The translations under genes were made by a program, and so were the position numbers. A DNA stretch of 61,556 nt, filler included, from Hausera hauseri (lineage: Eukaryota), in assembly GCA_046269625.1 (NCBI GenBank). It is 11 parts of 11 records of this genome, joined end to end, with 100 filler letters (N's around TTAATTAATTAA, not from the genome) between each part and the next. Parts side by side here need not be neighbours in the genome. Positions count along the whole stretch, not along the records: positions 20,104 to 26,285 come from JBJURY010128650.1; 10 more parts are not named here. One strand, written 5' to 3'. Positions within the stretch are counted from its first letter, which is position 1; the number at the start of each line of letters is the position of its first letter. Shown in pieces: positions 5,434-36,105 of this stretch. Below the pieces are notes generated by a model that was not told the DNA's origin, searched no databases, and worked only from the letters and a program-made list of their open reading frames with translations.

Positions 5434-5920
5434 GACACAAATCAAATTACCAAATAAAAAACAATAGACTCAAGTATTGGATTTCAAATCAACTTAAGAT
5501 GCATCAAAAAATTCATGCTCATTTTTGTTGTTGTCCTACACAATCAGTTCAACTATTTATACAAGTCAATAGTTTAATTTTAGGTACAAAAGCGGGTAAG
5601 CGAATTTTTACACTATTAACCCGATAATCTATTTTTAGATACCAATGAATCTACAACATTCCGCTACCCTTAAAACTGAACTTACTAAGCTAGTGAATAA
5701 ACTAAACGAATTAGTAATATTTACATGTGAAAAAAACGAAAAAGAATAACTGATTAAACCGATACAAAAATAAAAGAAATGTACAACATGAAATAAAAGT
5801 GAAATGAAGAATATACAATATACAAAGAGTATACAGATAAGGAATGCAAAAATCAAAATTGTAAATGAACGTTAGTGTCAACTGTTTTATACTGAATAAT
5901 CATCGACTCTGATTGATTGT

Positions 5921-10943: not shown

Positions 10944-13900
10944 ATGGTATGATTAATTTTTTCACATTATTACTTTTTCATGGTTATTGAAATTTCATTT
11001 ATTGTACTAGTCATATACATTCGCCAGAAACATGCGAAAAAACAATGTCCAAATACTACGGTGCAGAGATCGACGGGTGTCAATTTTATATATGCCCAAC
11101 CTGTCAAGTGATTTCCGGACTACAATTCAATGTATTTCGACAACAACAAAAATCATCTCTCATACTTCAGGAAACCGAAAAAACTATCGTTCGAGAACAC
11201 AAGATGATAAACATGGCCAAACAATTTGGTCCAGAACAACAATTGCCAACATTATCCCGACAATTTCCAACAACACATCAACCAGCCAAACGGACAATCA
11301 AACCAGCCAAACGGCCAAACAATCAGACTAAACAGTCCATTCCGATGAGAAAAAATATGAAACTTAATGTACATTCTGTACAATCCTTGTGTTTTGATGT
11401 TGCACCCGACATTTTTATTTCTACTCGACTGACTGAAGAGATTCTGACTACTTTGCATATATACACTCTTCGGTTTCCATGTTGTAAGGTTTAGTACGGT
11501 CTTGAAATTCTTGAGAATTCTGAAGGTGACTTTAAGGAGGCTTATATTTCACACAGAGCTGTACCATATGGGCAATGTTACCCACAATCTGTAGCTGATA
11601 GTTTACAGGAGAAAATTGAGAATTTTGCTGAAATGGGCAGTGGGTGGAAGGTGGTTAAGGTATTGAAATACTGTTTTCATATAATCATAACTAGCCCACT
11701 ACCCTACTTATCTGGCAAATCCTATATTCCAACATCTGACACTGAAAATGCAATTGTCGTTATTAACGTCCAGAATGAGGACACTGTTTCTTATACTCAA
11801 TTCTCTCAGTGACCAAATATTCTCTGTTTGAAACTCATAGGAATAGGAATAGAGTTAGAAATTACACTCCTTATTTAAGCGAGCTGAAATATTCTTTGGA
11901 TGACATTCCGATGAAAATATGCAACATAGGAAAGTTTGAGAGGCAGAATCATCAGTTGTCAGTTAATGTTTTTGTTTCATGAGGGGGATGATATGGATTT
12001 TGATGAGGACATAGTGAAAAATCCATTTGTTGATATTTTGTATTGCAGCAAAAATCCGAATGGTACTGTAGTTAACTTGCTGATTTCGGCGAATGATGAT
12101 CACTTTCACTATGTTGCTGTTCCCAACCTTAATGGTTTATTGAATATTGACAGTAAGGAAATCCGTATTCAATGTAAACATTGGTCTGAGATGTGTCTGC
12201 ATGGTTTTAGGCTTGAAACTGCTTATGCTAAGCATTTGCCAATGTGTATGTCTTCTTCCAAGTACATGACTTTGTACAAAATGCCAGAAAATAAGTTTTG
12301 TGAATTTAAGGACTGGTCAAAATCTATACGTTGTATACGCGACTTTGAATCTATTTGTACTGGTGAAGCGGTTAAACATATTCATTTGCCTGCCTCAGCC
12401 GGTCTCTTGTTAGTTTCACCTACAGGTATTGAATATAGGTAATTTGTAGGTGAAAATTCTATAATCGAATTTCTGTCCTGCTTTGAGGAAATTGTTAAAA
12501 CATTAGTTTTCCCATGGTATGAAAGTGCCAAAAACCCAACAATCCCGTTAACAACCGCTGAGTGGTTTCGATTTAAAAACGCCACAGCATGTTACCTTTG
12601 CCACGAACAGGGCACCACATTTGTTCGTGATCACTGTCATGTTGCAGGTCAATACTTGGGTCCAGCGTGTAATAAGTGTAACTTAGCTAGACAGGTTAGG
12701 TATAATTTACCAGTCATGTTTCACAATTTGCGTGGATATGACCCGCATAATATCTTGAAATGCATTAAGTAAATTCGGAAGTTGGGAGTTAAGTATTATT
12801 CCACAAACAACAGAGAAGTTCCTAACAATGAGTGCAATGATTCACTGTTCGGGTAAAAAGTCAGTTACTGTTAAATTTCTGGACACTGTAGTTTTTGCCG
12901 GATTCACTGAAAATATGAGCCTCCAACTTAGATAGCTACCCATTGACAGAAATGGCTTTTCCTTTGGACATTGTTAAGGGAAAAGGTATATTTCCTTACA
13001 CTGCTGCAAAATCTTTCAGCGACTTGCAGTCCATTTTTGCATTACCATCAAAATGGGATTTTGTTACTGATAAAGATTATGAGGAAGCACAACTGGTTTG
13101 GTTAAGATATAGTTGTAGCTCGCTTTTGGATTATATGTTGATATATATGAAACTTGATGTGTTCGTGTTAGGTGATGTTTTTGAACGCTTTAGAAAGGAT
13201 GTTAAGTTGCGGGATGGTTTAGAGGCGGTTAACTTCGTTTCAATTTCCGGTTTATCTGGGGCGACGGCACTGAAAACCAGTCCATGTCGAACAGAACTTA
13301 TTCAGGACCCAGAAATGTACAATTTCTTTCAATCTGGTATTCGCGGTGGCATGACTTTTGTAAATAAGCATAGGGTTGTAACCGATGAAAGCACAGCCTA
13401 ATTTAACAATTGCCTTATATTGACCGTGTTACGGAAAAACGGGGTTTAGTATTTGAAGTCGACTTAACCATACCGGCTGACAAACATGATAAGTTGGACC
13501 AACTGTTTCTAGCCCCAATTAATAAATGTCCTCCTGGTTCAAAAGTTAAGAAATTGCTTCTGACACATGAGCGTAAGTCCAAATATGTTGTTCACTATCG
13601 CTTATTACAATTGTACATCGAGTTAGGTGTTGTAGTTGAAAAGGTACACCGGGCTGTTGAGTTTGACCAGGGTTTTGTATTCAAGGATTATATCGATTTA
13701 AATACTGCAAAGAGGGCTGCAGCAAATAATCCTTTTGAAAAAGACTTTTTAAGCTTAAAAACAATAGCTTAAATGGTTAAACCGTTGAAAATTTTCTGAA
13801 TAGGTCAAACCTGAGACTGTGCAATAATACTAAAAAGCTTGTTACATATGCTAGTAAGGTCCAGTTTAAAGAGAGCATTATAATAGCCGATGATCTGGTT

Positions 13901-14645: not shown

Positions 14646-16790
14646 TCTAACCTTCAATGCCCCGCAATATCCATCGGCGCCATGTTGCTTGCATACAACA
14701 GAAGTGGTCTCTTGCTACGCGCGGAAGCTAACTCACAGATCAACTGCACAATGAACGTCTCACTGGTAGGAGACCTATCTTTTGGGTTGTTCTTTAGTAT
14801 GATGGTCGAAAGTGGGAAAGAATTACTGATATCCACGACATCAAAAACTGTTGATTCATGTCAAGCCACCAATGCGACTGTTTCTACGTGCACGCTAACT
14901 CCCGCTATTGTTGTTGCATATTCCGTGCCCCCAGACTCACAGATTGATGCGTTGTTGAGCATGCTAGTGCCTCAACTTAATAAGATGATACACAAGACCC
15001 TATGTGGTTACGTCAATGACATAGCGAACATTCTACGTAACAATTCGATTTCTCCGGCATCCCCTCTACCACAACTACAAAAAGGTGCCACACCATTGTC
15101 TGGTTGGGCAATATCGCGGTCGATTGTTTCAGTATTGAACAAGGCACCACGTAACTTTGGAGTTGTATTCCTAGCCTCATTGATATCTGCTACCGGGTTA
15201 CATGTCAACGTGACAAATAAGCAGGCGTTAGATATTTCGAGTCAGTACGGAAGGCTGCAGGTCTCTGCCGGGGGTGGTGCCAGTTTGGATCTAGTGGTAC
15301 CGAAGCTCATCTGTGGTGATGAGTATGACTGCACGTTAGTGAAAGGTATTGAGTTGATCAATATCAGGATATTGAATGGGGGTGGGTTGGAGAAACTAAT
15401 ACAGGAGGGTGTTAATTTTGCACTGCCGTTAGTGAATAAGATGTTTTTGAACGACAAGCGCGTCAACATTGTTGTTGCAACAGAGACTTTTAAACCTCCG
15501 CTATGGGTACTTGCAACTTTCATTCCATTGCTGTTTTTTTTTTCAGTTTTCTGTATTGTGTATGGCAGTTACCGGACCCTCCGATTGCACTCAGCGACAA
15601 TGGGTGACGAACCTACCACCGTAAACAAAACGCGCGTAATTTGTGAGAATGTATTTGTGACGGTAGCGTGTACCGGTGTCGCCTGCATGTTCATATGGTC
15701 GAACACAACGACGAATGCTGTCATTTTGATTGCAGACAACATACCTTACCTTTCCTTTTCCTTGATTGAGGCTGTGAAGAGACTATGGGAGGGTGGGCTG
15801 AAACCTCTTGCTGTTCTTATTTGTTTGTTCAGTTGTATCTACCCGTATGTGAAGCTGTTGTGTATAATATTTTTTGTTGTGATTGTCCGCCAGCCGCATC
15901 ATGTTGTCTTGACTATTATTGACATGTTTGGTGTCTTCTCGTTTCTCGATTTCTTTGTGATGGTTATGCTGGAGAATGCTTTTGCTGTTGAAGGACTTGT
16001 CGCAGTTCATCTGAAGCCATCATTCTATGTGTTTTTGTTCGCTACATTCATGTCTGTATTAATTGGCAATATTGTGACACATGGGATTTTTGATGGTGTA
16101 AATGGTTTGTTTAAGGCGGATGCTCCAACGGTGATAAAGAAGCGTGGCAAACCTACTCATGATGATGATGATGATGACTTTGAAAGCAATTATTATAACG
16201 CTATTGAGGACGGTGATACTGCTTTTGTTGATTGGTCAGTGCCGCGTGAAGCATCGGCACAGCGTGGTTATTTGATGAGAATATTCCTGAAGTGGGACTG
16301 GTGTTGTGCTCTCCCATCACTCGCAATCATTGTTGTGTCATCCGTTCTCATCATGATCTTTCCGATTGTGCGCTTTAACTTCACAGATATTGTTAGCTCA
16401 ATATATGGGAAAGAGCAGTATCGGTCATTCTGGACTCTTTTTAGCTCGTCAAATGCATATCTTCAGGCTCTTGCCGTATTGATTGTTGTTGCGGCACCAA
16501 TAGGATACGTTCTCTTTACACCACATATGGAATTACTTGGTGCTTGGTGTGCTATCACTGTGTTCCTGCTTTCCTGCATTGCCGGAATGTTGCAGCTTGG
16601 ACAGACCATTACTTTTGATTTCATGGGTCGGTGGGTATCACTCTATGCTGTTACATGCACGCTCTTGTGGCCTCTGATACTTATGGTGTTCGCAATGCTT
16701 GTAATGTGGATACACTCACTGAGACAAATAACCGGTGTCAACTTACTCTCCGTTCTCAAGGCGAAGATCATTAGATTGAATGACTCGTGA
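14646..16790 (+). CDS. Kinetoplastid-type PqiA/LetA-like multipass membrane protein with N-terminal BPI/TULIP-like ectodomain (5'-truncated)
   Basis: PqiA motifs FSLIEAVKRLWEGG..LFSCIYPYVKL..IDMFGVFSFLDFFV plus a second PqiA-like half. The frame is open to the contig edge (SNLQCPAISIGAM aligns with the paralog). Confidence 0.8.
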   Translation, partial: SNLQCPAISIGAMLLAYNRSGLLLRAEANSQINCTMNVSLVGDLSFGLFFSMMVESGKELLISTTSKTVDSCQATNATVSTCTLTPAIVVAYSVPPDSQIDALLSMLVPQLNKMIHKTLCGYVNDIANILRNNSISPASPLPQLQKGATPLSGWAISRSIVSVLNKAPRNFGVVFLASLISATGLHVNVTNKQALDISSQYGRLQVSAGGGASLDLVVPKLICGDEYDCTLVKGIELINIRILNGGGLEKLIQEGVNFALPLVNKMFLNDKRVNIVVATETFKPPLWVLATFIPLLFFFSVFCIVYGSYRTLRLHSATMGDEPTTVNKTRVICENVFVTVACTGVACMFIWSNTTTNAVILIADNIPYLSFSLIEAVKRLWEGGLKPLAVLICLFSCIYPYVKLLCIIFFVVIVRQPHHVVLTIIDMFGVFSFLDFFVMVMLENAFAVEGLVAVHLKPSFYVFLFATFMSVLIGNIVTHGIFDGVNGLFKADAPTVIKKRGKPTHDDDDDDFESNYYNAIEDGDTAFVDWSVPREASAQRGYLMRIFLKWDWCCALPSLAIIVVSSVLIMIFPIVRFNFTDIVSSIYGKEQYRSFWTLFSSSNAYLQALAVLIVVAAPIGYVLFTPHMELLGAWCAITVFLLSCIAGMLQLGQTITFDFMGRWVSLYAVTCTLLWPLILMVFAMLVMWIHSLRQITGVNLLSVLKAKIIRLNDS

Positions 16791-17107
16791 TGCTAATTTC
16801 CTGACGTAACGATGTTATTTGTATACACTGTTATGGAATTCATAGAAGGTTACACTTGCTCGACAACCTCTTTTTCTTTTTTTTTTTTTTTCAAAGCACT
16901 ATCAGAAGGAGCCGATGGTGTGATATTGCCAAGCAAACGACGGTTGATCTTTGTCTCCACGCGTTACCCATTCTGTCGATTGTAAGAGCTTAAGTGAACG
17001 GTTTTTTTTTTTTTCTCTTTCTTAGCCGTCATCGAATTTCCCATCAATAATTTATTGCTTAACATGACATTCGTTTTATTTTTGTTACATTGGATCTCGT
17101 ATAAGTT

Positions 17108-17184
17108 TAGAGGATATATCATACACAATATTTGTGTAACTTGACAGCATAAATGGTAGAATTATTGCTGTGGTATGTTTAAAA
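17108..17184 (+). repeat. 77-bp intergenic repeat identical to 19927-20003 (tandem gene array)
   Basis: TAGAGGATATATCATACAC...GGTATGTTTAAAA occurs twice, downstream of each gene. Confidence 0.95.
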
Positions 17185-17389
17185 CTTCTTTCATTTATTT
17201 TGTTTGTTGCCTTCCATTTTTTTCATTTGCATGCTTCATGTGATTGCTTGTTTACCGGCACACCACGATGTACCTATTCCTTCCCCATCCATAATTTAGT
17301 CACGTGTGTTTGATTGTGCATCATACTCTCAACACAGTTAGTAGCCTACATTCTATAAACATAAATAGGAAACGAACATCGTTTTGAAC

Positions 17390-17435
17390 TTGTTTTTGTT
17401 TTTTTGTTTTTCTTTTTCCATATCTTTTCTCTGAG
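17390..17435 (+). promoter_or_regulatory. Polypyrimidine tract plus AG, likely trans-splice acceptor
   Basis: TTGTTTTTGTTTTTTTGTTTTTCTTTTTCCATATCTTTTCTCTGAG ~65 nt upstream of the ATG at 17499, in a co-oriented intronless tandem array. Confidence 0.5.
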
Positions 17436-17498
17436 CTGTCATCCGGCTGCGCATACGAACACTATTACGGTCAACATAAACGCCACTACCCCTGAAAG

Positions 17499-19610
17499 AT
17501 GAGCTTGATGTGCCTGTCAGTTTCCCTACTGCTTACACTGGCGAATGTGTTCACGCACTTGTCTCTCCCTAGCCTTAATGTTTCTATCCCTGTTGCTGCC
17601 CTGGGTGGAAATATTGGATTGTCTAACCTTAAATGCCCCGCAATATCCATTGGCGCCATATCGCTTGCATACAACAGAAGTGGTCTCTTGCTACGCGCGG
17701 AAACGAACTCACAGATTAACTGCACAATGAACGTCGCGCTGCCAGGAAATCCACCAGCGCCAGTTTTTTTCAGTGTTGTCATGAAGGCTGGGCAGGACTT
17801 GGTTATATCCACGACATCAAAAACTGTTGATTCTTGTCAAGCTGTGACTGCCACTGTCTCTAGGTGCACGCTGGCGCCTACCTTTGTATATATGAACTAT
17901 GCGAACAACTCAGAAATGAATGCCCTCATCACTCAAATTTTACCGATGATAAACTCGCAAATACGCGAAAAACTGTGTAGTTATGCGCAGAACATCAGTT
18001 CGATCCTTACAAACAATAGCACTCCTCCGACAACCCCTCAGCCGCCACTCGAGAAAGGTGCAACACCTTTGTCTGGCTGGGCAATAGCCCGGGCGATAGT
18101 GACAATAATGAACAATGTGCCAGAAGTGTACGGTGTAAGGTTGCATGGGTCGCTGGTTTCCCTTACAGGGTTACATGTCGAGGCAAATAATAATAATGCC
18201 GTAAATATTTCGAGTCAGTACGGAAGGCTGCAGGTCTCTGCTGGGGGTGGTGCGAGTTTGGATCTAGTGGTACCGAAGCTCATCTGTGGTGATGAGTACG
18301 ACTGCACGTTAGTGAAAGGCCTCGCTGTGATGAATATCAGGATATTGAATGGAGGCGGGTTGGCAAAAGTAGTGCAGGAGGGTGTTAATTTTGCACTGCC
18401 ATTGGTGAATAAGATGTTTTTGAACGACAGGCGGGTCAATATTACTGTTGCAAGAGAATCGTCTAACCATCCGCTATGGGTGATTGCTACTTTCATTCCA
18501 TTTCTGTGTGTTTTTGCAGTGTTCTGTATTGTGTATGGCAGTTACCGGACTTTCCGATTGCAATCCTCTACCGAGAATAATGAATTTATCTCTGAGAGCA
18601 AGGTACGCGTGATTTGTGAGAATGTGTTTGTGACGGTAGCGTGTACCGCTGTCGCCTACATGTTCCTATGGTCGAATACAACGACGAACGCAACTATTGT
18701 AATCGGGAGGAATATTCCTTATTTTTCCTTTTCGCTCGTGAATTCCGTACAAGACTTATGGAACGCTGGGCTAGTGGCCCTCTCAGTTTTGGTCTGCATT
18801 TTCAGCGGTATCTATCCGTACGTGAAACTGTTGTGCTTAGTTTATTTCTTTGTAATTCTTCGGAAACCAACTCATGTGTTGCTGAAGACCATTGACATGT
18901 TCGGTGTCTTCTCGTTTCTAGATTTCTTTGTAATGATCATTCTCAAGAACGGACTCGAGGTTCCTGGCGTTGCCGAGGTAGTCATTGGGCCGCCATTCTA
19001 TCTATTTGTGATTGCGACAGTTTTGTCTGTCTTGCTTGGCAATATTGTGACATATGGCTTTTCGCTCAATTGTGGCCGGCCAACCGTTAAGCAACTGAAG
19101 GAGGCATTTTCAACGTGGGATTGGTTGTTTGCGCTGCCATTAACCTCCGTTATTGTGGTGTCATCTGTGCTCATTATGGTGTTTCCTATTGTCCGTTTCA
19201 ACATTTCCGGTATATCCGCCGCAATCTTTGGGGATTCAATTAACAGGACATTCTGGACGCTTCTGAATTTGTCTGACGGCTTCCTCATCTTTGTTGGGTT
19301 ATGGACCGTTCTCGCTGCCCCGGTGTTGTATGTTCTCATTACACCTCACCTGCAGTTCATCGGGTCATGGGCTGCTACCACAGTGTTCTTGTTGGCCTGT
19401 CTGGCTGGACTATTGCAGTTGGAACAATATGTAAGCTTTATAATAGGTGGGTCACTGCGTTCTTTGTTCAATGTTACTTGCCATCTGCTCTGGCCTCTTA
19501 TTCCAATGACGATTTCGATGCTTGTGACATGGGTTCGGTTTTTACGGCAGATTCTTGGTGAGGAACGGATAGCTGCCTTAAAGGCGAGACTCACACATCG
19601 AAACGCGTAG
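17499..19610 (+). CDS. PqiA/LetA-like multipass membrane protein with signal peptide and BPI/TULIP-like ectodomain (paralog 2)
   Basis: Signal peptide MSLMCLSVSLLLTLA; many N-x-S/T sequons; VSRCTL...INSQIREKLC Cys pair; FSLVNSVQDLWNAG, FSGIYPYVKL, FSFLDFFV; second half IGSWAATTVFLLA. Confidence 0.85.
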   Translation: MSLMCLSVSLLLTLANVFTHLSLPSLNVSIPVAALGGNIGLSNLKCPAISIGAISLAYNRSGLLLRAETNSQINCTMNVALPGNPPAPVFFSVVMKAGQDLVISTTSKTVDSCQAVTATVSRCTLAPTFVYMNYANNSEMNALITQILPMINSQIREKLCSYAQNISSILTNNSTPPTTPQPPLEKGATPLSGWAIARAIVTIMNNVPEVYGVRLHGSLVSLTGLHVEANNNNAVNISSQYGRLQVSAGGGASLDLVVPKLICGDEYDCTLVKGLAVMNIRILNGGGLAKVVQEGVNFALPLVNKMFLNDRRVNITVARESSNHPLWVIATFIPFLCVFAVFCIVYGSYRTFRLQSSTENNEFISESKVRVICENVFVTVACTAVAYMFLWSNTTTNATIVIGRNIPYFSFSLVNSVQDLWNAGLVALSVLVCIFSGIYPYVKLLCLVYFFVILRKPTHVLLKTIDMFGVFSFLDFFVMIILKNGLEVPGVAEVVIGPPFYLFVIATVLSVLLGNIVTYGFSLNCGRPTVKQLKEAFSTWDWLFALPLTSVIVVSSVLIMVFPIVRFNISGISAAIFGDSINRTFWTLLNLSDGFLIFVGLWTVLAAPVLYVLITPHLQFIGSWAATTVFLLACLAGLLQLEQYVSFIIGGSLRSLFNVTCHLLWPLIPMTISMLVTWVRFLRQILGEERIAALKARLTHRNA

Positions 19611-20003
19611 CATCGTTCATTTATTTTTTTTTTTTTGCACTTGCTACTCAGGCATATCCGATCGGTGCTACTAGAAAGGATCAATCTTCTAATTTGATTT
19701 TGCACATTATTTAACAAATAGATGTAGATAGCATATGATGCAATGATGGTGATAGCAATATTGCTTACCCTTGTCTCAAGATACATATTACAGTGGCTAC
19801 TTGCCAATCTGATGGTGGAAACGTTTGTTTCCTTGTGTGTATGCCATCGCACGTTTAAGAAACTGTTTCTTGCTTAGTATTATTTTTTCCTGCTTTATTT
19901 TCTTTACACTTCATGTTGTGTAAATCTAGAGGATATATCATACACAATATTTGTGTAACTTGACAGCATAAATGGTAGAATTATTGCTGTGGTATGTTTA
20001 AAA

Positions 20004-20103: not shown

Positions 20104-21775
20104 GCTCCTGAGTCTATAAGGAAGTCGATATGTGAAGTATCTCTGCATAACAGTACAGCTTTCAACAGAAAGACTGCAGAGGCGGTGTTGAAACGTCCAG
20201 AAGATTGAGCGATATTGCCTGCGCCAGAATGTGCCGTAAAATTTGGCGGCATTATTAGTCTTTGAAGTTTTTGGAGAAAAGGAAGAAGAGGAAGAAATGC
20301 GAGGAGATTATCGTTGTAATGTTTACAACCAGGCACGCATGATCTAATCTGTGACTGAAACTTATTGTGGTAGACACAAATAGGGTTGTCCACAGCGTAC
20401 CGTTTGCTGTAGAACTGACAACCCAAAAAGCATTTCCTAGCATCCCTTCGAAATCGCGTGTGTCAGAAACAAGTCATGCGTCCGCTAGGTGAAATGGATC
20501 GAGCAGAATGTCTGGAAATGGTTCTCTCCCTTGAAGATGTAATTTCACTTCGTCGAGGCCCATTACGATTATTTAGTTGGGTAGTAATGGCCGAAATCGA
20601 CTGCTGTAACTTGTCAAACTGTTGCTGCATCATTTTCAGTTGTTTAGTAAAAATATTGTGTCTGTAATTGGAGCACAAGTGGTTGCAGCCGCAATAGGGA
20701 GAGAACTGTTGGTATGAAGAATCTCAAAGGATTTGTCAGCCATTATTGCCTATTTTTCGATAGCAGAAGACTCGTCAACAACGGTGCGTAAGGCTCTGAT
20801 TGAGCTGGGCAAAGACGATAAGAAATAACGGCGAATTAAATCCGCATTATTCGTAGGTGTCACTCCTAGCGTGCTGAGCTTCAGAATGGCCATTTGGAGA
20901 AAGTCGGATGGCTTTTGGCTTCCTATCGCGTGGTCATTAAAGTACTCTTGAATTATATTGTCAATCGAAGGATCCGTGACATGCAGTACAGCTTCACAGA
21001 GAGTCTCGTAAGGTGTCGAGGATTTTAGCAGCTTGTAGATATTATTAATCTGCTGCTTGACGTTGGCAGGCAGAAGAATTAAAAGGCTATTGGCTCGCAC
21101 AAAAGAATCAGTAATTTTGCTCGATTTTAGCCACTGTTGGCGGAATTGGAGCCGTGGTTTGCTGGAGTTGTTTTTGTCGAGGAAAAATTCCACACAAGGT
21201 AAATTTAATGACCCTCGTGACTGTTGGGAAGGTGATAAACGATAGACGTTGCCTGTACTTGTAAATTTGTCATCCGAGAAGGATGGGTTTGGGTCCGATC
21301 CACCTCAAAAGCGAAAATGGAGCACCAGGTGGATGATGGGACGTTCATGGTATGTGAAAAGGAAAAGAGAGTCAGAAGGATGTATTATAAGCCCTTGATA
21401 TGTGAAATAGAAATCAGAAGTGTTATATGATGAGGACAAAGCGTTATATAAGAACTGTGCTGTCTCGTTGAGTGGAGCTTTTAAGGTTGTAATATGTTGA
21501 TTGTAGCTAAAGACCAGGAAGGATAATTGTAATGAGTTCGTCCCAGGGGAACGATGAAATGCACGAGGGGCTTGGGTGGTTACCTTTTGGGTTAAGAAGC
21601 GGTTCGAGCGTACAGCAGGGATAGCGGTGACAAGTATTGAATGAGATGAAAGAAGATCTAAGGTTTTTGAGCTCAAAAGGTTTTCAAAATTGAGATTGGT
21701 GTTGGTTATCAAAGATTTATGAGAGCGCAAAAAATGGCCGCACTGGTGGGCGCAAACAAATGAAAAAAACTTCAC
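20104..21775 (-). mobile_element. CsRN1-like Ty3/gypsy 5' part: UBL-GG-Gag (two CHCC motifs)-protease; degenerate
   Basis: UBL ..FYFTYQGLII..IIHLVLHFRF*GG is in frame with Gag (TPYETLCEAVL, IGSQKPSDFL, FLSSLPSSIR). CF*HTRF..ARKCFLGC and CVYHNKF..RSCVPGC follow, then protease FLIDSGA at the contig edge. Confidence 0.85.
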
Positions 21776-21994
21776 CCACCTGTGTCTAGATGCCTCTGAT
21801 GATGGAGTGTCTGCCGATCAATCGGTGAGGTTGCTGTCAACTCGCGGTATGTCCGTAGAATCAATACAGTGGTCTGGTCCAGAAAGGCCGAAGTCCAATA
21901 CATGACAGCAAGCGGCGACTGGATAGACATACACATGTGTTTCCGGTGAATTGCACATTGGGAAATCGCTGGGACTGTGATTCTTTTTTTATTA

Positions 21995-24900
21995 TTAAGG
22001 CCACTTTGGTCTTGCCACGAACAAGCTGCTGCTAACAGACAGGCTCGCCGCCACAAGTGAACATCCTTTTTTTCGATTGGCAGCTGGATAAAAAACAATG
22101 TTATTCACGGCTTGAATTGGTTCAAATTGGACAACACATTTATCCAGCAATGATGCAAATGTGTGAATTCGATTATCATTTTGCTTACGCCCATCTTCTG
22201 AATCAGATTTGTCTCTTGAAGTATTTGACTTCCATGTTAACAATTGATGAGGAGTAGACAACTCGAAAACATTTGTTATCAAAACACATGCTTTTCTCCA
22301 AATATCCGAACTGAACTTAACATTCGATATAATTACTGTTTCCAGACAACTTGTGTAGAACCTAGCTAACTGCTCGTGATCTTGTAAACAACACCACTTC
22401 AGTTTATTGAGCAAGTCATCCAGAAGAGCTGTGTGTAAAACCTAGAAATACTGCAAAAATACATTAACAACAGCATGAAGCGTATGATTGCAAGTGGTAT
22501 TTAACCATTCACTTCTGTCGTTCAAAGAAAAATCTTTGGCTGAAACATGCGTTGGTCAGGTAATACTACTCGCTGCCGGTACATGTTGAAGTATCCGAAA
22601 GACTAAATTAAAATTATCCTGCCACCAACGAGACCTGAATCCACTTCCGTAACCTTTTATTATTCCAAAGAATACTGTCAAGCCTCTCGTACGAACGTCA
22701 AGTTTGCAGTTGCTAATCACTCTAAAAAGTTCGCATAGAATTGGCATCCAGCCTTTTATCCTAATAGTATCGTCATCATCAATTTTATCATATGACAAAA
22801 CCGTGCCGAACTGCTCTATAGGACTGAGGAAACTTTCTTATGACGAAATTTCTTTGAACAAATGACCTTGCTCTTCAATTAATCTGACACACTGTCGAAT
22901 TAATCGTATAGCTTCCATGTTAATGTCCGGAAAATTTGTGTTACAAGCAAATCTTGAAAGGCTTTTCGCTGAATTTAGAAACGAATCCTGTACTAAATGA
23001 AATGAAGTCTTAAAGACGTCTTTCACAACAAAAGATAGAGTCTCGAACGCCATTGCAACGATTAGTTCCTGCTCAAATAATGTACCACTAGCAGCCCGTA
23101 AGAACACCATGAGAAAATTAGTCCATTCAGAACGAATGTTGCTCCAGTGAGATTGTACAAATTGTGCGACACAACGAACAACCACGTCATCCACATTTTC
23201 TACAAATTTTCTTTGCCTTCCATAACACTGACAAATGGCCTAAGGAAGTCTTTTTGAAAATGAAAATAGGGGAATTCACACTTTTCAATATATTTCCCTG
23301 CTAATTGCCGTAACGAATCCATAGCGAATATTGCAACGTCTTCATTAGACGACCTACTAGCATCTGTAAAATGTTCACCGATTATTTGCCACACGCAAGA
23401 CCATTGAAGACGTATTCTTCCCATATTGTAATAAGCTATTTTTACAAGTGTTTGTAAACTGAATATTCGAGGCTGAGGTAGAAAAAGTTCATCTTTGTTC
23501 ACCTGGCATAGAGCTTTGACAAAGTCAACAATCGCGTCTCCATCCAGTCTGACAGAACCAGTAAAAACTTTATCAACTGCTACGATAACACTTTGAGAAC
23601 CAGTTTCACCCATGACTTCTTTAAGTAAGGCGATATTCTTTTGTCGATCAGCTAATAAAATTGTTAAATTAACTGTAGAAATCCCGTCCACATCCGAGAA
23701 GCTTGATTTAGAAGTTTTTGATACCTGGTTGCCAATATTTTGTATATCATCGGATTTCGTACTAGTTTTTCGGATATCAGCATCAAAAATCTTCTTTGAA
23801 AATATTTGAGTTGCAAGACTCTCTTGAAGCACTTTTGGTGGTCCGGTACTACCGATCAATTGGGCTGATTCAAGTTGGGACATACACCGGAGTATTTCTA
23901 ACCAGGAAGTTCCAAGATAATTTCCATCCGTATGTGCAACAGATAATAACGTTTCAATTGTATCGATATTTTTTGGCTTGATACCTTCGCTTGAACTTCC
24001 TCTTTCCAGATCCATGTTAAAAATACATGCTATTCTGATAGCACATCGAATGCCTTCCAAACAGAAGCGTGAAATATCCATATCATCACATTCCCGCAGG
24101 GTAACACTGAATGATGCTAAAAATGATCTCCATACGACTTTAAACATATGTTTTGCATGTTCTTAATGCGTAGCACTAGTTAAATCGGACTCGACGTGGG
24201 AAATTGATTCCATCACTTCTTTTGCAGCTTTCGATAATTCCTCCATTTCTATATTGAAGAGAATATTTCGATACTTTTCCGAAGATGATTGTTACTATCA
24301 ATGAAACTTACATGTTTTCGGTCAACGGTAGATTCCTTAACTTTTATTTCATTCTCCGCAATTTCATCATAAATCTTTCCGAGATATTCAACGTCCAGAT
24401 CACGGCTTTCACTAATACCACGATTCATTTTTATGTACGCATATTTGCGCATGCGATTTTTGTTTTTTATTTGCGAACTATGAAGATCAGTGGTTAGCAT
24501 GATAATAGAATACGCTAGAACGTATGCCGTATCAGCAGATTTAAATGCGGATTCATTGGGTTACACTCGCAAAACCGAGACGCAAATTTTCCCATCAATC
24601 GATCATTTTTCTGAGCTTCGCATGGTAGACGAAATCCGGACAGAAATTCCCGAAGAGGCGACACAAAATCCTTTCCGGAAAAGTCTAACTGATCCACGTA
24701 TGCATACATGACCTCGATATTGTACTTGTTATTTTCACCAAGAAAATCTCCGATGGCCGTTTTGTCAAGTCGCTCGTCTTTGTGCAAAAATTCCGCAATG
24801 TCATCCACCGTTGTTCCAAGTAAATCCTGTCGTTGTAAATAGTTCAGACCCTTCAGCGGGTACTTGTTGAATATCCCAATGCCGTGTTCGAACATTTCTT

Positions 24901-26285
24901 TCTGTTGTTTTCTGCTCGCGAAATGTTCGGGATTATCCGGTGTATTTTGCGTGACGTTTCCTACTGGATGATTCGTGTAGTTTACCAAAGACGACTGTGA
25001 GGAACTTCGGGAATTGATACTGCTGGTACTTTCGATTTTTGTTAAATTGCTTTGATTCTTTTTACCGGGTTTCGGTGCAACTCCACTGCCGATGACGCCC
25101 TCGTGTCGTTCCTGCTCGACGCCGAAATACGACTGAGATTCGGGACTGATGTAGAGTTCGTTAGACCATTCCACCATGCATTGGACGATATGACAAAGAC
25201 AGTCAAGCGCCTTAAGTCGCAATGTCTGTTGGTTTGTGTTGACATTACCTGGCGATTTCAATTGGGCTATTTTCTCCAGACTCTTCACCAACAAAACAAA
25301 AATATTCGCCAGACTAAATTCACAATCGTAATTGAGATAAATGTCCACGACGCATTGTGCATTCATACAAATACGTTTCAAAGCTTCCAGAACAAGATCC
25401 TTATGAACGAACGAACTCCGAGGTGATTCAAGAATGAACAGGAAAATTTCCTTGAAAAACACTTCGTTCTGCCGTTTTAAATGCTGTTTAAAATTGGATA
25501 ATAATGAGAGAAAAATGGATAGAGATAATTCGAATACTTCAGGAATCGATGAAACGCCGTTTTTTGATAAAGCAACACAGAGATACTGCCGAATGGCATT
25601 GATGAATATTTCGCTTTGTTTAAAAACCGGACCGGCATTTTGTAGAATATTGAGTAATAATTCCAGAGAGAGGATTTTCGAACGTAAATCATGGGATTTT
25701 GGATCGGGAATTCCATCGGGGAGGGCTTTCATTGAGAGACGACACAGACTACAAAAAATAAGAAAGGCATCATTATGAGACGCATGAGCAAAATTTTTAC
25801 GCTTAACAGATTGCGAATTGATTGTCTAAAGGCTCCTGACTTTCACCATCACAAAGACTCTCTCTACTTTCAGTCTTAGCTTTGTCAACATTAGACAAAG
25901 CGTTGTCAATTATTTTATCCACAATTTCACTAACCACCTGCCATGAGTTTTCTTCCGATTCCGTTGTTCCATTATTTTCATCTATCAACGTGTCTTCTTT
26001 GTCAATTCTTTCTGACACATCAGCAATACTTTCGTCTATTTTCATCACTTCCTACATGGTTTCTTTTTCCATTTTATTAAAGATGGAATTGATCATCTGA
26101 GTCAGAGATGCTTTAGCAGTTGTTTGGTTAACCTAATCTTTGCTAGCTAGATAAATGCCAAAGCACGTGCGGACCATGTTAATCAGATTATTTTCATGAA
26201 CTTCTAAAGTTGGATTGATCACAACTGTAAGAATACCTTTAATGATTTGCAATTGTACAGTATCACCTGATTGACCGTTTTGACG
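21995..26285 (-). pseudogene. ARFGEF1: Brefeldin A-inhibited Arf-GEF (BIG1/BIG2, Sec7 family), intronless and disrupted
   Basis: [18 protein letters not shown] (HUS box), Sec7 [14 protein letters not shown] and [44 protein letters not shown]. Multiple stops and frameshifts. Confidence 0.92.
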
Positions 26286-26462: not shown

Positions 26463-29400
26463 GATCACCAAGTGTAATATTACTTTCCTTAATTCTTCCT
26501 TAGTATTCTCTACCATAATTTCCTCGATGAAAACTTCACCAGGTAAGTTGCTTTTGTTTATTTTGAACCGAAATGTTCTCATTATCATTGCTGCGTCGTA
26601 TAATACCTTTTCTTTTTCATTCAACATCTCGTATCTTGGTCCCGAATAGTTCACTATTTTTATAATGTTTCTCAGCAACTTGTTTAATTCTTCGCTATCG
26701 AAGTTAATCGCGGGCATGGAAAATTGCCTTGGTTCTTGTATCAAGGCTGCATTTTGGTCAATATCATCTCTTATTTTCCTCGGCCTTCCAACGGGTCGTT
26801 TCTGTTTCGGCGCAGTTGGTATTGCTTCGCTAATTGGTACTAGATTCTTATCGTATTGTTCCTTATCTTCCTCACTTTGGAGGTAGTCAAAATACATTAC
26901 AGGGTCTCGGATTCCCATAATACGTCCTACGCAATGTTCATTTCTCACTTTCCTTACAGCCTTGTCTTTTGTCTGTTCGTCGGTAATTATAGCCACTATT
27001 CGATTTGATTCCTCTGGAAAAATTCCAACGTCTATTAGTAGCTCGGGTTCGTCCAGTATCCTACCTCGGAAATATAATCGATAATTTACTTCATCTTTTC
27101 CACCGTTTTGTACTATCCACTGGTTTACTTCTCTAACCGATGTTATCGTTGTACATTAAATTTCTCTCTCTTCCATCCATTCAGCTGATAATTTTACTTT
27201 AATCGTCGTTTCGGGTTTAGCTTTCAAGAAATCAGCGTATTTCTTTATCAATAGTCTGGGTACTGAGATATAAACGGCATTTCCGCCTGAGAGTTTGGTT
27301 AATGTAGGGATCAATTGTCTCAGTTTGCTCGCCATCATGTTGACGTTGATCTGCTCAGTTAATTCTTTCTCGGCCCGTTCGGGATCCAAGAGCATATCCA
27401 TATCAAATCGTCGGTCTGTTGGAAGAATATCCTTTTTTGAAGTTGGATGGCTGTTTTTGGGTTTTGGTTCTACACATCTTCCAAATAAGCATCTCATCCT
27501 TTGTCATCTGTGACGTCTGAAAGCCCATAATCCAACAATACCGTGGACGCCCTTCGTACATTTTCGCGTATCTCGTTTAATCTCAACTGTACTTCTCTCA
27601 TTAAGTTGGTTCGAAACTCTGCTCCGTTTCCACACGCAAGTTGTATCGTTTTTAATCTTGGTCCTAGTTCATCTGTAGGGAACAATACTTTTCTTTCGTA
27701 ATCTGTTAATTCGGTCGTTACATCCGTTAACCATCTTTGTAAGAATTCTCTTTTATTCGTTAACTCTGATTGTGTGATCTTATATTTATTCTTATAAGTC
27801 TCTGATTCTTTGCCTAATTCATCTAGCTTTGTAGCTCTTTGCTTTGTGCGAATTCGCAATTCGTTTATATCTTTAACTTGAGTTGTCAATTGTCGCGTCT
27901 TGTTGTCATCTATCTCTGTCATTGTTGATATAAGCAATATTAAGCCGTGCATTTCTTTTAGAGTTTTCGAATCGGGATCTATTTCTTCAATTAGTCTCTT
28001 TACGAATTTAGCCTTGTCTGATGTGAGGTGACAATCTTTGGTTATTTCTATTAATTCAGCGCGGCAATTTTGGTCGGTATCCAATGCCCACTCAAAAGGA
28101 CAATGTAGATATTTTAGTACTTCTTCTAACGCGATTTGATGATTTGGGCAAATATCCAATGTCGATAGATCACATATGGATATTTCATCTATGGACCATG
28201 TTGCCAAATGTCGTAAACCTTCTAGGCGGACACATTTTAGTCTCATCGATAAGGAGGAGATCTTTTCCTGTTTCGCCGATAATTCCATTTCTTCGATCGT
28301 GGTATACAATTCTTCTGTGAGTTTTATTTCCTAATCTTTACTCATAAATCTTAGTCTCAATAACGCATTAAATTCAACTCGAAAGTTTGCCTATGTTTTG
28401 TAAACATCTAGGTTACGGAGTATTTCTTTTAGCTATTGTTTTAATATCGGTTTACATTCTGAATATTTCCTTAGACGATATTTCGTTAAACTCACTAATA
28501 TGTCTAACAGTTCAATCCATTCTTTGAATTGGTTCTCTATCATTGGTTTCGCGTTTATTACATTCTCTAACTGTTCATAGGCATCATTCAATTTATCGTC
28601 CGGACCTTTAATATAGTCCATTACTCCTTTAACGTAGTTAACTTCTTTCTTGTATTCGTCCAATTCTAAAATATATGTTTTCGTTATGTTTTGCACTTCT
28701 TGGTCCTCTGCATACGTTATTTTATTCCTATATCTGTAGATTTCGGAGCGCCTTTTTTCTTGCGAGGATATGAGAATTCCTATGTCCGCATATTCTTTAG
28801 GTGCACTGTACGCATCTTACACATTTCCATTTTGAGAGGAATGTCTACCGGTTCTATGCCTAGTATTAAAAATTCGTTTTCATCTAATTCGTATATTGGT
28901 TTATTTTTGAGGTGATAGATTACTGCAGTCTCTATTTCTACCATTAACATCTCTAAGTTCCGTTTAGTTCGCTTCTGTTTTGGATCCGTTTCTAGAGTCT
29001 TTAGTAATCCTTGGGCAGTCGCCACTTTACTCTTAATTTCTATTTCTTGATTATACCATGTGACGGTGAAGTCGATTCAGATTTTTATCCATGAATATAG
29101 TTTAGTCTTCCATTTTTCAATTGACTTCTCCATAATTTCATCCATTTTCTCTGGTTCCTTCTTCCTGCTAACGTCTTCTTCAAGGTACCATTTAAATTCT
29201 TTATACATTCTTTCGGCGAACTGCTGTTCTTTTCCAGACACATGTACTTGAGTTTTTATATGGTTTAATTCTTCCAGATTCCGACGCATCGTCCCTGTAT
29301 CTCTTGGCGCATCCTAATTTCATTTAATTTATCTGCATTTTACCAGGATTTTCTGATAATCCACACCTTTTCGTCTAGCCTTTTAATTCGCTCCGTGTCA

Positions 29401-31328: not shown

Positions 31329-32390
31329 ACCAGCACTCTTCGTTTCGCAGTTGCTGTTGCCGTTGTAGACCAATGAAATTAATTTCAGCCAAAGTAGCCG
31401 GCATTTGAGATCTTCTGGACCGAGTTTGAAGATTATTTGGTCGACGACGTTTCTGAAATTGTTGAATCTGGTATGGAGAAATGCTAGCTGGGGCAGCCGC
31501 ATGTGAACCATCGGAAATAGGCCACGTTGAAGGTGGCATTGGTGGTAAATAAGCTAGGTGATCCCCAACACCAAGAATGGAATCAGAAAATTGCTCAATT
31601 GGAGATTGTAAAGAATCTGTCTCAATAATATACTGACCATGTGAAAGGGATGATTTATGGCTCAAAGACATTTGTTGAACGTTTGTAGGAATATTCTGAT
31701 TGGTTGTTATTTGAACATTAGTAAATAGTTTCCTTGATATATTCGTGGATGGCAAATGTGCCATTTGAACTTGATTTTGTTGCGCTAATAAATCTGACAT
31801 GATTGACTGGCCATTGGCAGTTTGAACTACAGAAATGATCTGTTCGGTGAAGTGTTGAATACCACTACCGTCACGAGAATCAATTAAACTATTAGCGGAC
31901 GACGCAAGGTTAAGTGAGGAAAAGTCGATTGGCTGTACATGGTTGTCAGTAAGGATTTCGACGAACTTATCAGCATTAATACACTCTGTAAAGTCGTTAG
32001 CTTCTTCAAGATCATTAGATAATACGTATTTATCGACAATTTTAAGCGTTGGGTCTGCTGTTTGCAGAAGGCAATTTTGTGCTCTCTTGTACGAATTTTT
32101 GGATGAAATATTTCTGCAATTCCATTAAACTCCTGCAGAAGGTGCACTTGTAGGAGGGAGAAGAACAGTAGAGTTCGTCTGTAGGATTACGATAATGACT
32201 GTCGGACCATGTAGGGTGTATAAAGATCCACAGTATTGCACTACCGTTGTTGAGAAAGAAAGGCGTGCATGGAAAATGATGGTGCATTCCTGGAACTGCG
32301 GTTTTTGAAATCCCACTTCTGACGCCAATGTAAATTTTTGTCATTGCGTTGTTTGGTTTCGGTTAATTCGGTAATAAACTTTATATACAT
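31329..32390 (-). mobile_element. 5' part of an LTR retrotransposon (LTR end, tRNA-Leu PBS, gag fragments)
   Basis: ..TTTACA-T-TGGCGTCAGAAGTGGGATT PBS at 32309-32327. CTPFFLNNGSAILWI is homologous to the copy at ~52980. The gag-like ORF 31327..31800 is cut by the Polinton end. Confidence 0.7.
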
Positions 32391-32419
32391 GTCTCTTTGA
32401 GGACAGAATTTGACTGGAA

Positions 32420-35350
32420 GTATTCAAGTCTTTAAAAATATTTCCTAAGTCTGTCAGACTTTTTACTGCCATTGGACAAGCTTTGCGCATTTATGGTACT
32501 GCAGAACTTTTTTTACCTTGGCACATTTCTTTGAAGTCTTCCACCGGAAATTCATAGTCGCTGATATCAAACCTCCTATCTTAGCTCCTGTTTTTCTATC
32601 ACACCACAATTTACTTGTCGACTGCAGATAGCATCTTGTGACCAAAAATACAGTCAATAATACAAATTCACGGAATAGTACACCACTTGTCGCACAGCTG
32701 ACTGCGGTGCCAAAATTGATATTAAAGAAACTTGTTATGAAACTAAATAAATTGAGTTTTGGCAATTCCGATTATGACGATTCTGGTCATACAATCACTA
32801 AAAGAAATAACTACTAATACAAACATAATCTCTCAGCCTGCATCTCCATTCTCACAACTAGATTCAGCTCTTTGAGATTACATAACAACTTCTTGTGCCA
32901 GAACATTAAAGAAAGATGCCAATTTTAAACCTGCTTTTGAAACATACTATCACATCGTCACTGAACACCAAAGGCAAATTGAGCAGAAGGGTCGGCCACT
33001 TTCTCCTCGCAGACGGAAAGCGGTAGACTTGGAATTTAACGAACTAAATAAAACAAGAACCATAAGAAGTCAAAATCTCATTGGGCCTCTACTCTACATA
33101 TTGTGCCCAAGAAAGATGGCACTTTTTGGCCCTGCGGCGATTATTGCCAATTGAACACTATTACGGTAATAGATGCATATCCATTACCGCTCATTTACGA
33201 CATTCTACATCGACTCCATGGAAACACCATCTTTTCATCCATAGATTTGCACAAAGTCTGCCATCAGATTCCCGTGCACTTGCAGACATACCTAAAACGG
33301 CTGTAACAACACCTTTCAGCCCTTTCGAGTATGTTTGTATGCCATTCGGACTTCATAGTGCTTCACAAACATTTCAAAGGCACATAGACACAGCATTCGC
33401 CGGTCTAAACTTTGCGTTCCCATATATAGACAACATCCTCATTGCTTCGTCGTCTCCAAAACAGCATTCTGAGAATTTACGCATAGTCCGTTAGCGCCTT
33501 CACCAAATAACCTCGAAGTCAACTTCGCTAAATGTTGCTTTTTTCAACAAAGGATCAGCTTTCTTGGTCATATTATCAGCAAATCTGACCACTCTCTTCA
33601 AGAAGATCGCATAACTAAGCTTAACAACATTCATTTGCCACGTACAATAACTGAAACACGTTCTTTTATTGGCACACTCCACTTTTTTCACAAATATATA
33701 CCACATTGCTCTGAATTAACCGCTTGCATTTCTGGAAAAAAAGAAACAATTAATTCACTGGACTCCTGAAATTGTCAACCAATTTGACCATTTACGTGAA
33801 GGTTTAAAAACTGTCGAAATACTAGCTTATTCTAAACCAGGTGCTGAACTAATACTAACCATAAATGCTTCTACCACAGCAGTTGGAGCTATACTGCATC
33901 AAATATTCAATACTGCCAATGAACCTCTGGAAATTTTTCTCGTAAATTAACACCTCCCAAAAGCCGTTATTCAACTTTTGACAGAGAACTCCTAGTTATA
34001 GTACTAGCGCCAAAACACTTCTCGCATCTGTTATTTGCTAGGTCTTTTACCATTCAAACAGACCATAAACCTTTGCTTCGTATAATGGACATGAAAAATC
34101 CGTCATCTCAAGACGAACGTCACATATAGTACTTGTCGACATTGGATTTTAAAATTGTACATGTTTCCGGTACTGATAATTTAGATGCCGATTTTTTGTC
34201 AAGGTCAGTTAATATCGTAGGAGTTACTCCTATTTTTTCACAAGCAGTGATTTGACAAAACGTGCCAACACAGGATATTCTCAAATTCTTCAAATCACAA
34301 AAAATCATCGACGGAATTGCTTACGACACCCCCTCACCCGGTAATCACAAACCAATATTGTCTTCATTGTTGCAGAAAACTGCATTTCACAGCGTTCATG
34401 CTCTTCATCATCCAGGTGCCAAAGCAACATTTCTACTTCTTCAGCGCAACGTTATATGGCCGTCGATGAGATCAGGTGTACAGGCATGGGTTAAGGAGTG
34501 TGTGACATGTCAAAAGTTTAAAGTTAACAACCATCTGAAACCACCATTATATCACTTCCCCTGTGCTTCGCTTTTCGAGTCCGTGCATATTGACCTAGTC
34601 GGCCCTCTTCGTCGAAACAACGGCCATCAATTCACATTGACCACGATGGACCGTGCTTCTCGATGACCAGAAGCCATTTCAATACTCTCCACCAACTCGG
34701 ACATTATCGCTGAAGTTTTCATTAAAACTTGGATTAGCAGATTTGGCTCACCTCGTTTCATTATCACGGACCAACGTTCACAATTTGAGTCAAATCTTTT
34801 TAAATCTTTATTCAATCGCTTGGGGATCAAACACGTACATTCTTCTCCATATTATCCTAAAGCGAATGATTTACATGAGCGATTCCACCGTGCAATGAAG
34901 ACCTCGCTCAAAATCCTTGCTGAATCACATAGCAACTGGGCATCTCTCCTTCCACTGGTCCTGCTTGGTTGGCGTAACACACCCTCTACAACTACGGGTT
35001 GTGCACCAGCTGAAGAATTGTTTGGCACACCTATACGTGCGCTTTATGAATTAACTGATACAGATGATACGCCAACAGATGAGCTAATTTGAAATGCACA
35101 AAATCACTTTGTGGCATTAAGCACTCATTTTGTAAAATTGTAAACAACAACAAGTCAAATATACCAAATGATCTTTATACCACTAGGTTTTTTTGGCTTT
35201 ATAATCCGTCACCTTGTGGTTTTCCATCACAGTACGTTCGGCCCTTCAAACTACTTGCATTGTCGTCTCACGCTACCACGATTCTTAAAAGCGGCAAAGA
35301 ACAAGCTGTTCACATTACAAACCTAAAACCAGCTTTCTTCGTTCACGATA
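32420..35350 (+). mobile_element. CsRN1-like Ty3/gypsy pol (PR-RT-RH-IN), degenerate
   Basis: PKKDGTFWPCGDYCQLN, MPFGLHSASQTFQR, YIDNILIAS, YSTFDRELL, TDHKPL; integrase HALHHPG..CVTCQ, VHIDLVGP, ITDQ, ERFHRAMK. Confidence 0.92.
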
Positions 35351-35944
35351 CTCTTGAAGACACCAAAACCAACAAAAACTCTACTGGCACTTTTCTTGGC
35401 TTTGGTACACTGGCCTTTGCCGCTAATTCACCTTCAACCAATTTAACTATTCACATACCACCTCCATTTGAAGACAAAGCTTCTCTCGCTGCTTCTTCTC
35501 AACCTCTTCCAAATTCTCAATCGCCTTCACATCCTCAACTTTCTTCAAATACACACTTTTCTGAATCCGCTGCACTTAGTATCTCTCCTCAACACTCCTC
35601 AAATGCTCAATCTTCCTCCAATCTTCAATTCTTCAAATCTTCTCCACCTTTATTATCTTCCTCACCTTCAGTTAACTTTCCTTTGCAACTTTCACTTTCC
35701 ACATTTAATACAACTTCCACGGAAAATTTCGACAATCTTTCACCCCAATGTACATCTCTGCAAGCGAACTCAAGACACACAAACAAAACACAGAGTTATT
35801 TTCAGCAGGTACAGTAGGGAGCAAAATATTGACGAAGTACAACGCCTTTTACATGCGAAAACCGAGTAGAACACAAACTTTTTTTCATTTTGCGTTTATT
35901 TTCTTCTCTGTTACCTTTCTGCTTTATAGCTTTCATTTTGCCAC

Positions 35945-36105
35945 GGGGTGATGTGGTACCCACGTGCTTTGCCGCTCCGAGGCCCACTTTGGCCGGACAC
36001 AGCCGGGTGCATTGTTTCGCGCTGGTGGCGCCGTTGGCAGGACCTTTGATTCCTCCTTCGGGGGTTTTCGCAGCGGTCGTTATGACCCAACCGTTCAAAT
36101 TCAAT
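35945..36105 (+). repeat. Probable PPT and start of the 3' LTR
   Basis: GGGGTGA followed by TGTGGTACCC and an abrupt GC-rich segment downstream of pol. Confidence 0.45.

Follow-up and report, generated by a model that had tools for sequence, protein, structure and literature searches.

Why would a retrotransposon Gag carry, ahead of its capsid, a ubiquitin-like leader that ends in Gly-Gly and is interrupted by a TGA just before the two glycines? The question arises in the window, by which we mean the whole stretch of DNA analysed (61,556 nucleotides from Hausera hauseri, assembly GCA_046269625.1), which consists of 11 small contigs joined with TTAATTAATTAA spacer; the element studied lies on the minus strand of the contig at 20104-26285. 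Our reading is that this contig holds a decayed copy of a CsRN1-type Ty3/gypsy element, and that the ubiquitin-derived Gly-Gly domain carried by its family is likely cut by host deubiquitinases, which would free the capsid; we place the probability of this reading, drawn from sequence comparison, at about 0.7.

The minus-strand frame from 21817 to 20750 reads ...LSFLVFSYNQHITTLKAPLNETAQFLYNALSSSYNTSDFYFTYQGLIIHPSDSL...PIIHLVLHFRF, then TGA (21305-21307), then GGT GGA, and it passes unshifted beyond the TGA into a capsid-like region about 35 codons on (Table 1). After the capsid come a coiled-coil-like stretch, two CX2HX9CX3C (CHCC) knuckles, an FSKN-like gag end, and the DSG motif of the protease (FLIDSG, 20106-20114) at the contig end. 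The capsid region matches DUF7041 at E 0.028 in the window copy, and DUF7041 is found at E ≤0.1 in 43 of the 56 aligned proteins; a 46-codon stretch at 21821-21958 had no match among solved structures.

Table 1. Features of the Ty3/gypsy copy and its upstream neighbour, in window coordinates, listed in the direction of the minus strand.
Feature	Coordinates	Strand	Basis or remark
Degraded, apparently intronless BIG1/Sec7-type ARF-GEF sequence, adjoining the element upstream and sharing its strand	21995..26285	-	Sec7-like_HUS E 1e-49; Sec7 E 1e-35
Open leader of 91 codons that shares the frame of the ubiquitin-like domain and has no in-frame ATG	21545..21817	-	2.1% of 5,000 same-DNA shuffles stay open
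Degenerate ubiquitin-derived domain, beta-grasp predicted	21308..21532	-	Held-out profile, AlphaFold2, Foldseek/VIA-align
TGA stop, equivalent to ubiquitin residue 74; first break of the copy	21305..21307	-	Related proteins open here
Gly-Gly, predicted deubiquitinase cut site	21299..21304	-	Present here in 39 of the 48 long-N-terminus relatives (among the matches listed)
Linker, variable, low-confidence	21200..21298	-	Mean pairwise identity 9%; pLDDT <50 at residues 94-112
All-helical Gag capsid region, DUF7041-type	20648..21199	-	TAG break at 20750-20752, frameshift near 20650; helices predicted
CX2HX9CX3C (CHCC) knuckle 1, interrupted by a TGA (20463-20465)	20418..20471	-	
Second CHCC knuckle, intact	20325..20378	-	
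Gag end (FSKN-like, stops at 20252-20257) and pol start	20104..20290	-	Contig ends here, in the protease

We conclude that the 79 codons before the TGA almost certainly encode a real ubiquitin-derived domain. On the 79 residues of the window copy itself, Pfam reported no ubiquitin family at E ≤1 and a single-sequence fold gave no confident structure (pLDDT 43); ubiquitin clusters are among its language-model look-alikes at 0.91, and for the intact domain of the relative P0002 the ESM look-alike score was no higher than 0.82, at best a hint. The evidence has therefore to come from the relatives. A 76-position profile built from 32 relatives, with the window copy, P0002, P0003, P0006 and the near-canonical ubiquitin rows P0031 and P0077 all held out, found the leader domain at E 9.9e-10 in a six-frame scan of the window; above threshold it otherwise found only a true ubiquitin in a BEL/Pao element, as a pair of overlapping fragments (E 7.4e-14 and 2.4e-10); the next-best match stood at E 0.27. 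Profile scores were 38.8 bits for the real leader, 1.2 for the reversed leader, and 10.8 for the best of 1,000 shuffles in which the last three residues were kept fixed. Given an alignment of 56 rows, AlphaFold2 predicted a beta-beta-alpha-beta-beta-alpha-beta fold (strands at residues 6-13, 17-24, 45-49, 52-54 and 70-77; helices at 29-40 and 60-64) with pLDDT 83-94 over residues 21-80; as that alignment includes two near-canonical ubiquitins, the model is not independent of them. Its neighbours among solved structures are ISG15, FAT10, SUMO and ubiquitin (Foldseek E from 4e-5, for ISG15; Z 10-12, rmsd 1.3-3.3), VIA-align giving Z 12.1 to SUMO1 at an rmsd of 1.3 across 72 residues. In the fold searches the capsid part had no match among the matches listed, which ubiquitin-domain matches fill. 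Pfam ubiquitin was found at E ≤0.1 in 14 of the 56 aligned proteins, at best 3.7e-23 in P0031 across all 72 positions; P0077 differs from a ubiquitin chain at 18 of 75 positions (counted by eye); and the family profile of 56 sequences has ubiquitins as its best solved-structure matches, at about 44 bits per unit. Judged by sequence, the domain is a descendant of ubiquitin. The first-pass annotation had proposed a ubiquitin-like Gly-Gly leader before a CsRN1-like Gag and had called for a structure prediction: the held-out profile and the intact relatives fused in frame bear out the former, and AlphaFold2, run with the relatives, returned a beta-grasp fold at a pLDDT of about 90.

The relatives, which are automatic gene calls, also define how widely the arrangement occurs. 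P0002-P0005 came from word-index searches and P0006 from a cluster look-up; P0002, P0003 and P0006 are 50-54% identical to the window copy over about 265 residues spanning domain and capsid, and in all three HFRLRGG or HFRLCGG leads straight into Gag. A three-row profile searched against 1.84 billion representatives gave 332 matches at E ≤0.001, of which the best 150 were used; of 152 proteins in all, 104 are uninformative as they begin within 70 residues of the capsid. Among the matches listed, 39 of the 48 relatives with a long N-terminus carry the domain with Gly-Gly and 8 have another N-terminus, a proportion biased upward because it includes P0002, P0003 and P0006 and because the query itself contained the domain. 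The 39 remain from 40 Gly-Gly rows picked, P0051 having proved spurious; P0080 was kept, its correct Gly-Gly lying elsewhere than the one picked. Related-locus scans of metagenome, viral and prokaryote genomes found no loci, and a word-index search started from a 15-row profile recovered nothing beyond two of those rows.

Domain identity tracks capsid similarity, the window domain being 43% identical to that of P0002, 32% to P0003 and 24% to P0007. In a quick capsid tree (139 rows among the matches listed, after removal of six near-duplicate or chimeric rows and of short matches; SH-aLRT support only, midpoint root), a 56-row side with support 95 comprises 38 domain-bearing rows, 18 short rows and no long row lacking the domain, and holds all 37 two-knuckle rows; the other 83 rows include 3 that bear the domain and 8 long ones that do not. 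It is possible that the domain had one origin with later losses, or that it was gained several times. P0031 and P0026 are 73% identical in the capsid and 21% in the domain, as against 65% and 39% for P0026 and P0018; that P0031 has a near-canonical ubiquitin while its sisters are degenerate suggests that a new capture replaced the older domain, the alternative being slower evolution in its line.

What the family has kept, and what it has lost, bears on function. On average, two rows share 16% of residues in the domain body, 9% across the linker and 32% over the capsid. We examined 35 degenerate domains, a set that excludes P0031 and P0077 and that was selected for having Gly-Gly, so that the presence of Gly-Gly in 35 of 35 is by selection: core positions 3, 5, 15, 26, 30, 43, 50, 67 and 69 are hydrophobic in 83-100% of them; in the tail, Arg72 is present in 25 (with Lys in 5) and Leu73 in 27; Ile44 is found in none and Arg42 in one, and position 70 is mostly Asn or His. 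The degenerate family does not preserve the Leu8-Ile44-Val70 patch and Arg42 of signalling ubiquitin; P0031 and P0077 are near-canonical. In 40 rows the residue after Gly-Gly is Ser in 14, Met in 6, Thr, Asn and Ala in 4 each, and Gly in 3; Pro never follows Gly-Gly directly in any row. From this retention of fold and tail with loss of the receptor surface, we infer the pattern expected of a cleavable leader. The first-pass annotation had argued that the di-Gly, kept despite extreme divergence, points to selection for cleavage; the pattern does hold for the family, but the argument does not extend to the window copy, because its Gag has three stops and at least one frameshift. Among copies, 6 of 14 changes over 21310-21374 are synonymous, against 23% expected (p 0.08).

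The domain has usually lost its start as well. A Met near ubiquitin position 1 is found in 3 of 33 relatives and is missing in the other 30, and in the window the 170 codons before the TGA contain no in-frame ATG; P0050 begins at Met where its near-twin P0037 has Gly-Gly-Ser. We rejected a membrane anchor as the role of the leader: a hydropathy of 1.8 was reached by 4 of 24 leaders, and 2 of 24 exceeded their own shuffles at p <0.05. By analogy with known ubiquitin fusions, cleavage by a host deubiquitinase is quite probably the function of the domain. The primary product would comprise leader, ubiquitin-like domain, Gly-Gly, linker, capsid and two knuckles; a host enzyme of USP/UCH type would cut after Gly-Gly during or soon after translation; and, whatever the start of translation, the capsid would thereby begin at a fixed residue, mostly Ser, Met, Thr, Asn or Ala. 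Because such a cut would free the capsid from any start, the domain may lose its own Met and its binding surface as long as it keeps fold and tail. In human SDE2, Ala at the equivalents of Leu69 or Arg72 prevents cleavage, Ala in Gly-Gly impairs it and Ala at Leu73 halves it (PMC13572447); in BVDV CP Rit, an internal ubiquitin without its first three residues is a working processing signal (PMC8310069).

The domain could instead remain attached and serve Gag as an N-terminal module for structure or binding (similar to a matrix, or as a tag that aids folding or solubility), with Gly-Gly as a flexible hinge. Many ubiquitin-like domains are indeed never cut (PMC13572447), and both the well-conserved fold core and the novelties that the degenerate domains share among themselves (aromatics at 41-42, Thr or Ser at 44) would suit such a role; a hinge, however, needs neither Arg72 nor Leu73, nor exactly two Gly at ubiquitin spacing across domains that are 16% identical, and at that identity no common binding surface is evident. 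We regard permanent attachment as unlikely. Still less probable, in our view, is that the domain is cut off and that the released piece is its main use, as a ubiquitin decoy or modifier directed against host defence. Ile44 and Arg42 serve ubiquitin receptors and the activating enzyme, and their counts of 0 and 1 in 35 speak against this role even though the freed domain would have a free Gly-Gly end with Arg72 in 25 of 35, viruses encode ubiquitin-like proteins (present among the structural matches), and two members have near-canonical ubiquitin; the rapid divergence suits a disposable piece.

As to the stop itself, the TGA very probably reflects decay of one copy. Measured against P0002, the window Gag is broken by three stops (21305-21307, 20750-20752 and 20463-20465) and by a frameshift near 20650; the gag end is read in still another frame, which hints at a further frameshift. 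Several statements of the first-pass annotation bear on this point. Its placement of the TGA at the Arg position of LRGG is correct, the stop being ubiquitin residue 74, where P0002, P0003 and P0006 read HFRLRGG or HFRLCGG (the tail of the window copy has Phe at 73 and the stop at 74), and our reading of the minus strand agrees with its claim that the frame continues without shift through some 35 codons into Gag. The leader was described as hidden by one TGA; that TGA exists, but the damage is greater, with three stops and at least one frameshift. The Gag span of 20750..21193 has to be given up, since the TAG at 20750 is the second break and Gag homology extends to about 20310 through a frameshift and the third stop. 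In run X1, 3,278 contigs align to the contig of the element, most of them at less than 95% identity, and the summed depth, which is not a copy number, drops from about 5,500-5,800 over the capsid to 1,411 over the domain and to 10-65 above 21967; the pattern is that of a diverged repeat family with an edge near 21800-21970. At the codon before the stop the window differs from 92% of the aligned depth, so the motif of the window copy carries changes of its own; no contig of run X2 aligns at the stop.

A programmed read-through or regulatory stop, yielding a free domain together with a Gag fusion at a lower rate, is very unlikely: 39 of 39 relatives among the matches listed are open here, the window copy has two more stops and a frameshift, and no stable structure lies 3' of the stop (shuffled sequences fold as well as the 84 bases that follow the TGA, -12.9 ± 2.8 against -12.0 kcal/mol). 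Read-through of UGA is reported between gag and pol of Tca2 (PMC2194720), and the stop immediately precedes Gly-Gly; a stop at this position would, however, leave the domain tailless and gate all of Gag. The TGA is most likely a plain nonsense mutation in a copy that is dead. That the likeness to ubiquitin arose by chance, or that gene callers joined ubiquitin pieces to Gag, is hardly credible, for although several relatives carry unrelated host-gene pieces further upstream that look like joins, the raw window DNA has the fusion in one frame with no joining, domain similarity parallels capsid similarity, and the shuffle and held-out tests are far from chance.

Host-gene pieces are present upstream of the ubiquitin domain in several predicted proteins: CARM1-like in P0002, DIS3L- and CNOT1-like in P0003, and H2A in P0020; across P0020, P0029, P0041 and P0092 the upstream pieces include H2A, 5'-nucleotidase, cohesin SCC3, SelO and dynein. 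These pieces may be gene-caller joins or real cargo. In the window, the BIG1 stretch upstream of the leader is interrupted by numerous stops and shifts of frame, its final open stretch shares the frame of ubiquitin-Gag (a coincidence expected 1 time in 3 by chance), and several diverged contigs of run X1 align on it; we consider it a neighbour, possibly cargo, which would fit LTR-mediated capture (PMC5131818).

The other contigs of the window hold a second, independent ubiquitin-Gag arrangement. On the minus strand of the contig at 41337-45881, a BEL/Pao element carries at 44608-44834 a clear ubiquitin (Pfam E 4.4e-21) that ends in LRLKGG, is in frame with the Gag start and has no Met as residue 1; the first strand of this ubiquitin shares the frame of an upstream ORF of 216 codons (44799-45449), with a frameshift near 44802. 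A weak ubiquitin match (E 0.1) lies on the minus strand at 26901-27155, at the start of an uncharacterised ORF with an AT-hook, in a contig that resembles another mobile element. On the plus strand at 32300-36200 is a second decayed Ty3/gypsy pol with RT, RNase H and integrase motifs and a likely 3' LTR from near 35950; its DNA is not similar to that of the element studied, and comparison of the 5' region of our element with the 3' end of the other element gave no likeness (score 25, where shuffles average 23 and reach 35). At 10991-13401 and 39558-41166 there are fragments that by eye resemble DNA polymerase B; together with shared repeats at 37775-38162, 46316-47352 and 61180-61550, they suggest Polinton-like or other DNA elements. 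One open frame of about 970 codons on the minus strand at 1588-4491, intronless and with AWS, SET, bromo, PHD and BAH domains (ASH1L-like), is either an intron-poor gene or a young retrocopy; this ASH1L-like frame and the BEL/Pao sequences point to an animal as their source. Two tandem genes on the plus strand at 14646-20003, one with a PqiA domain, are unlike the adjacent animal-type contigs, and the contigs of the window may come from mixed organisms.

A broader scenario can be imagined, which we consider doubtful: LTR retrotransposons would have captured the ubiquitin joint several times (in the doubled-knuckle CsRN1 clade, in some single-knuckle CsRN1 lines and in BEL/Pao) and would renew it from host ubiquitin mRNA; translation of Gag could begin anywhere upstream, even within host coding sequence that the element had captured (BIG1, for instance); and host deubiquitinases would free the capsid. 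Gag processing in LTR retrotransposons is usually ascribed to the element's own protease. If our preferred reading of cleavage by host deubiquitinases is true, the clade would have handed its first Gag cut to these enzymes, tying particle assembly to the ubiquitin system and giving the host a point of control; Gag genes would be mis-annotated from a later Met, as P0050 compared with P0037 may exemplify. The family forms a series from near-canonical ubiquitin down to about 16% identity with a fixed tail, and it would let the minimal needs of deubiquitinase recognition be tested.

How does the element compare with known systems? The CsRN1 clade is marked by the CHCC knuckle and by DT/SG in the protease (PMC2582038). 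Like CsRn1, PwRn1 and AgCR of that clade, our element has a helical Gag, a CX2HX9CX3C knuckle, DSG after gag, and gag and pol in adjoining frames; it differs in having two knuckles rather than one, and in the ubiquitin-derived N-terminal domain, which the available part of the source does not mention for the clade (PMC2582038). One of the two CHCC knuckles is intact and one is stop-broken in the window copy, and both are intact in P0002, P0004 and P0006; the family profile also matches many Gags of DUF7041 type with a single CHCC, all of them unnamed. The contig ends in the protease and holds neither RT nor LTRs. A tRNA-Trp primer site with ≤3 mismatches was not found on the minus strand from 21300 to 22030 in this decayed copy; one match with 3 mismatches, at 22039-22050, is at chance level (51 found, 63 expected).

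A full-text literature search of mostly open-access papers brought up, among the results listed, no description of a retrotransposon Gag with a fused ubiquitin; the word ubiquitin is absent from the main text of PMC8321522 and PMC13524379, and PMC2836005 mentions it only as ubiquitin proteases on DNA transposons. A parallel in principle is provided by the ubiquitin inserts of pestiviruses (BVDV Osloss, CP1 and CP Rit), in which host ubiquitin was likewise captured within a polyprotein, a cut by a host protease sets the downstream N-terminus, and the insert was gained several times independently (PMC8310069, PMC13517609); those inserts are recent, sporadic and near-canonical and lie before NS3 in an RNA virus, whereas the Gag domain is old, clade-wide and at about 16% identity. 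The SDE2 leader, which USP5 cuts after Gly-Gly, shares the divergent ubiquitin fold and the conserved tail (PMC13572447), but SDE2 is encoded by the host and continues with Lys beyond its Gly-Gly, a residue found there in one domain-bearing row of the Gag family (P0061). SDE2 was the best solved-structure match of a three-sequence profile, over the second half of the domain (E 0.067); we rejected an origin from SDE2, as ubiquitin is far better with 56 sequences and no Sde2 family is among the best 25 of 52 families matched, and from the sequences the likeness looks convergent. In the eS31, eL40 and FUBI-eS30 fusions (PMC8354635), too, a ubiquitin or ubiquitin-like domain stands ahead of a particle-assembling protein and is removed by host proteases; these are host genes that start at ubiquitin's Met, whereas the Gag domain is usually internal and belongs to a mobile element. 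Ubiquitin mRNA, and perhaps BIG1 upstream as well, could have come into the element through the LTR-mediated capture of host transcripts described in PMC5131818; the cases in that paper are passive retrocopies, whereas the ubiquitin in Gag would be a captured gene kept as a part. In conclusion, the principle of a cleavable ubiquitin is known from pestiviruses, SDE2 and the ribosomal fusions, and, to judge from the literature covered, its proposed variant in a retrotransposon Gag is new.
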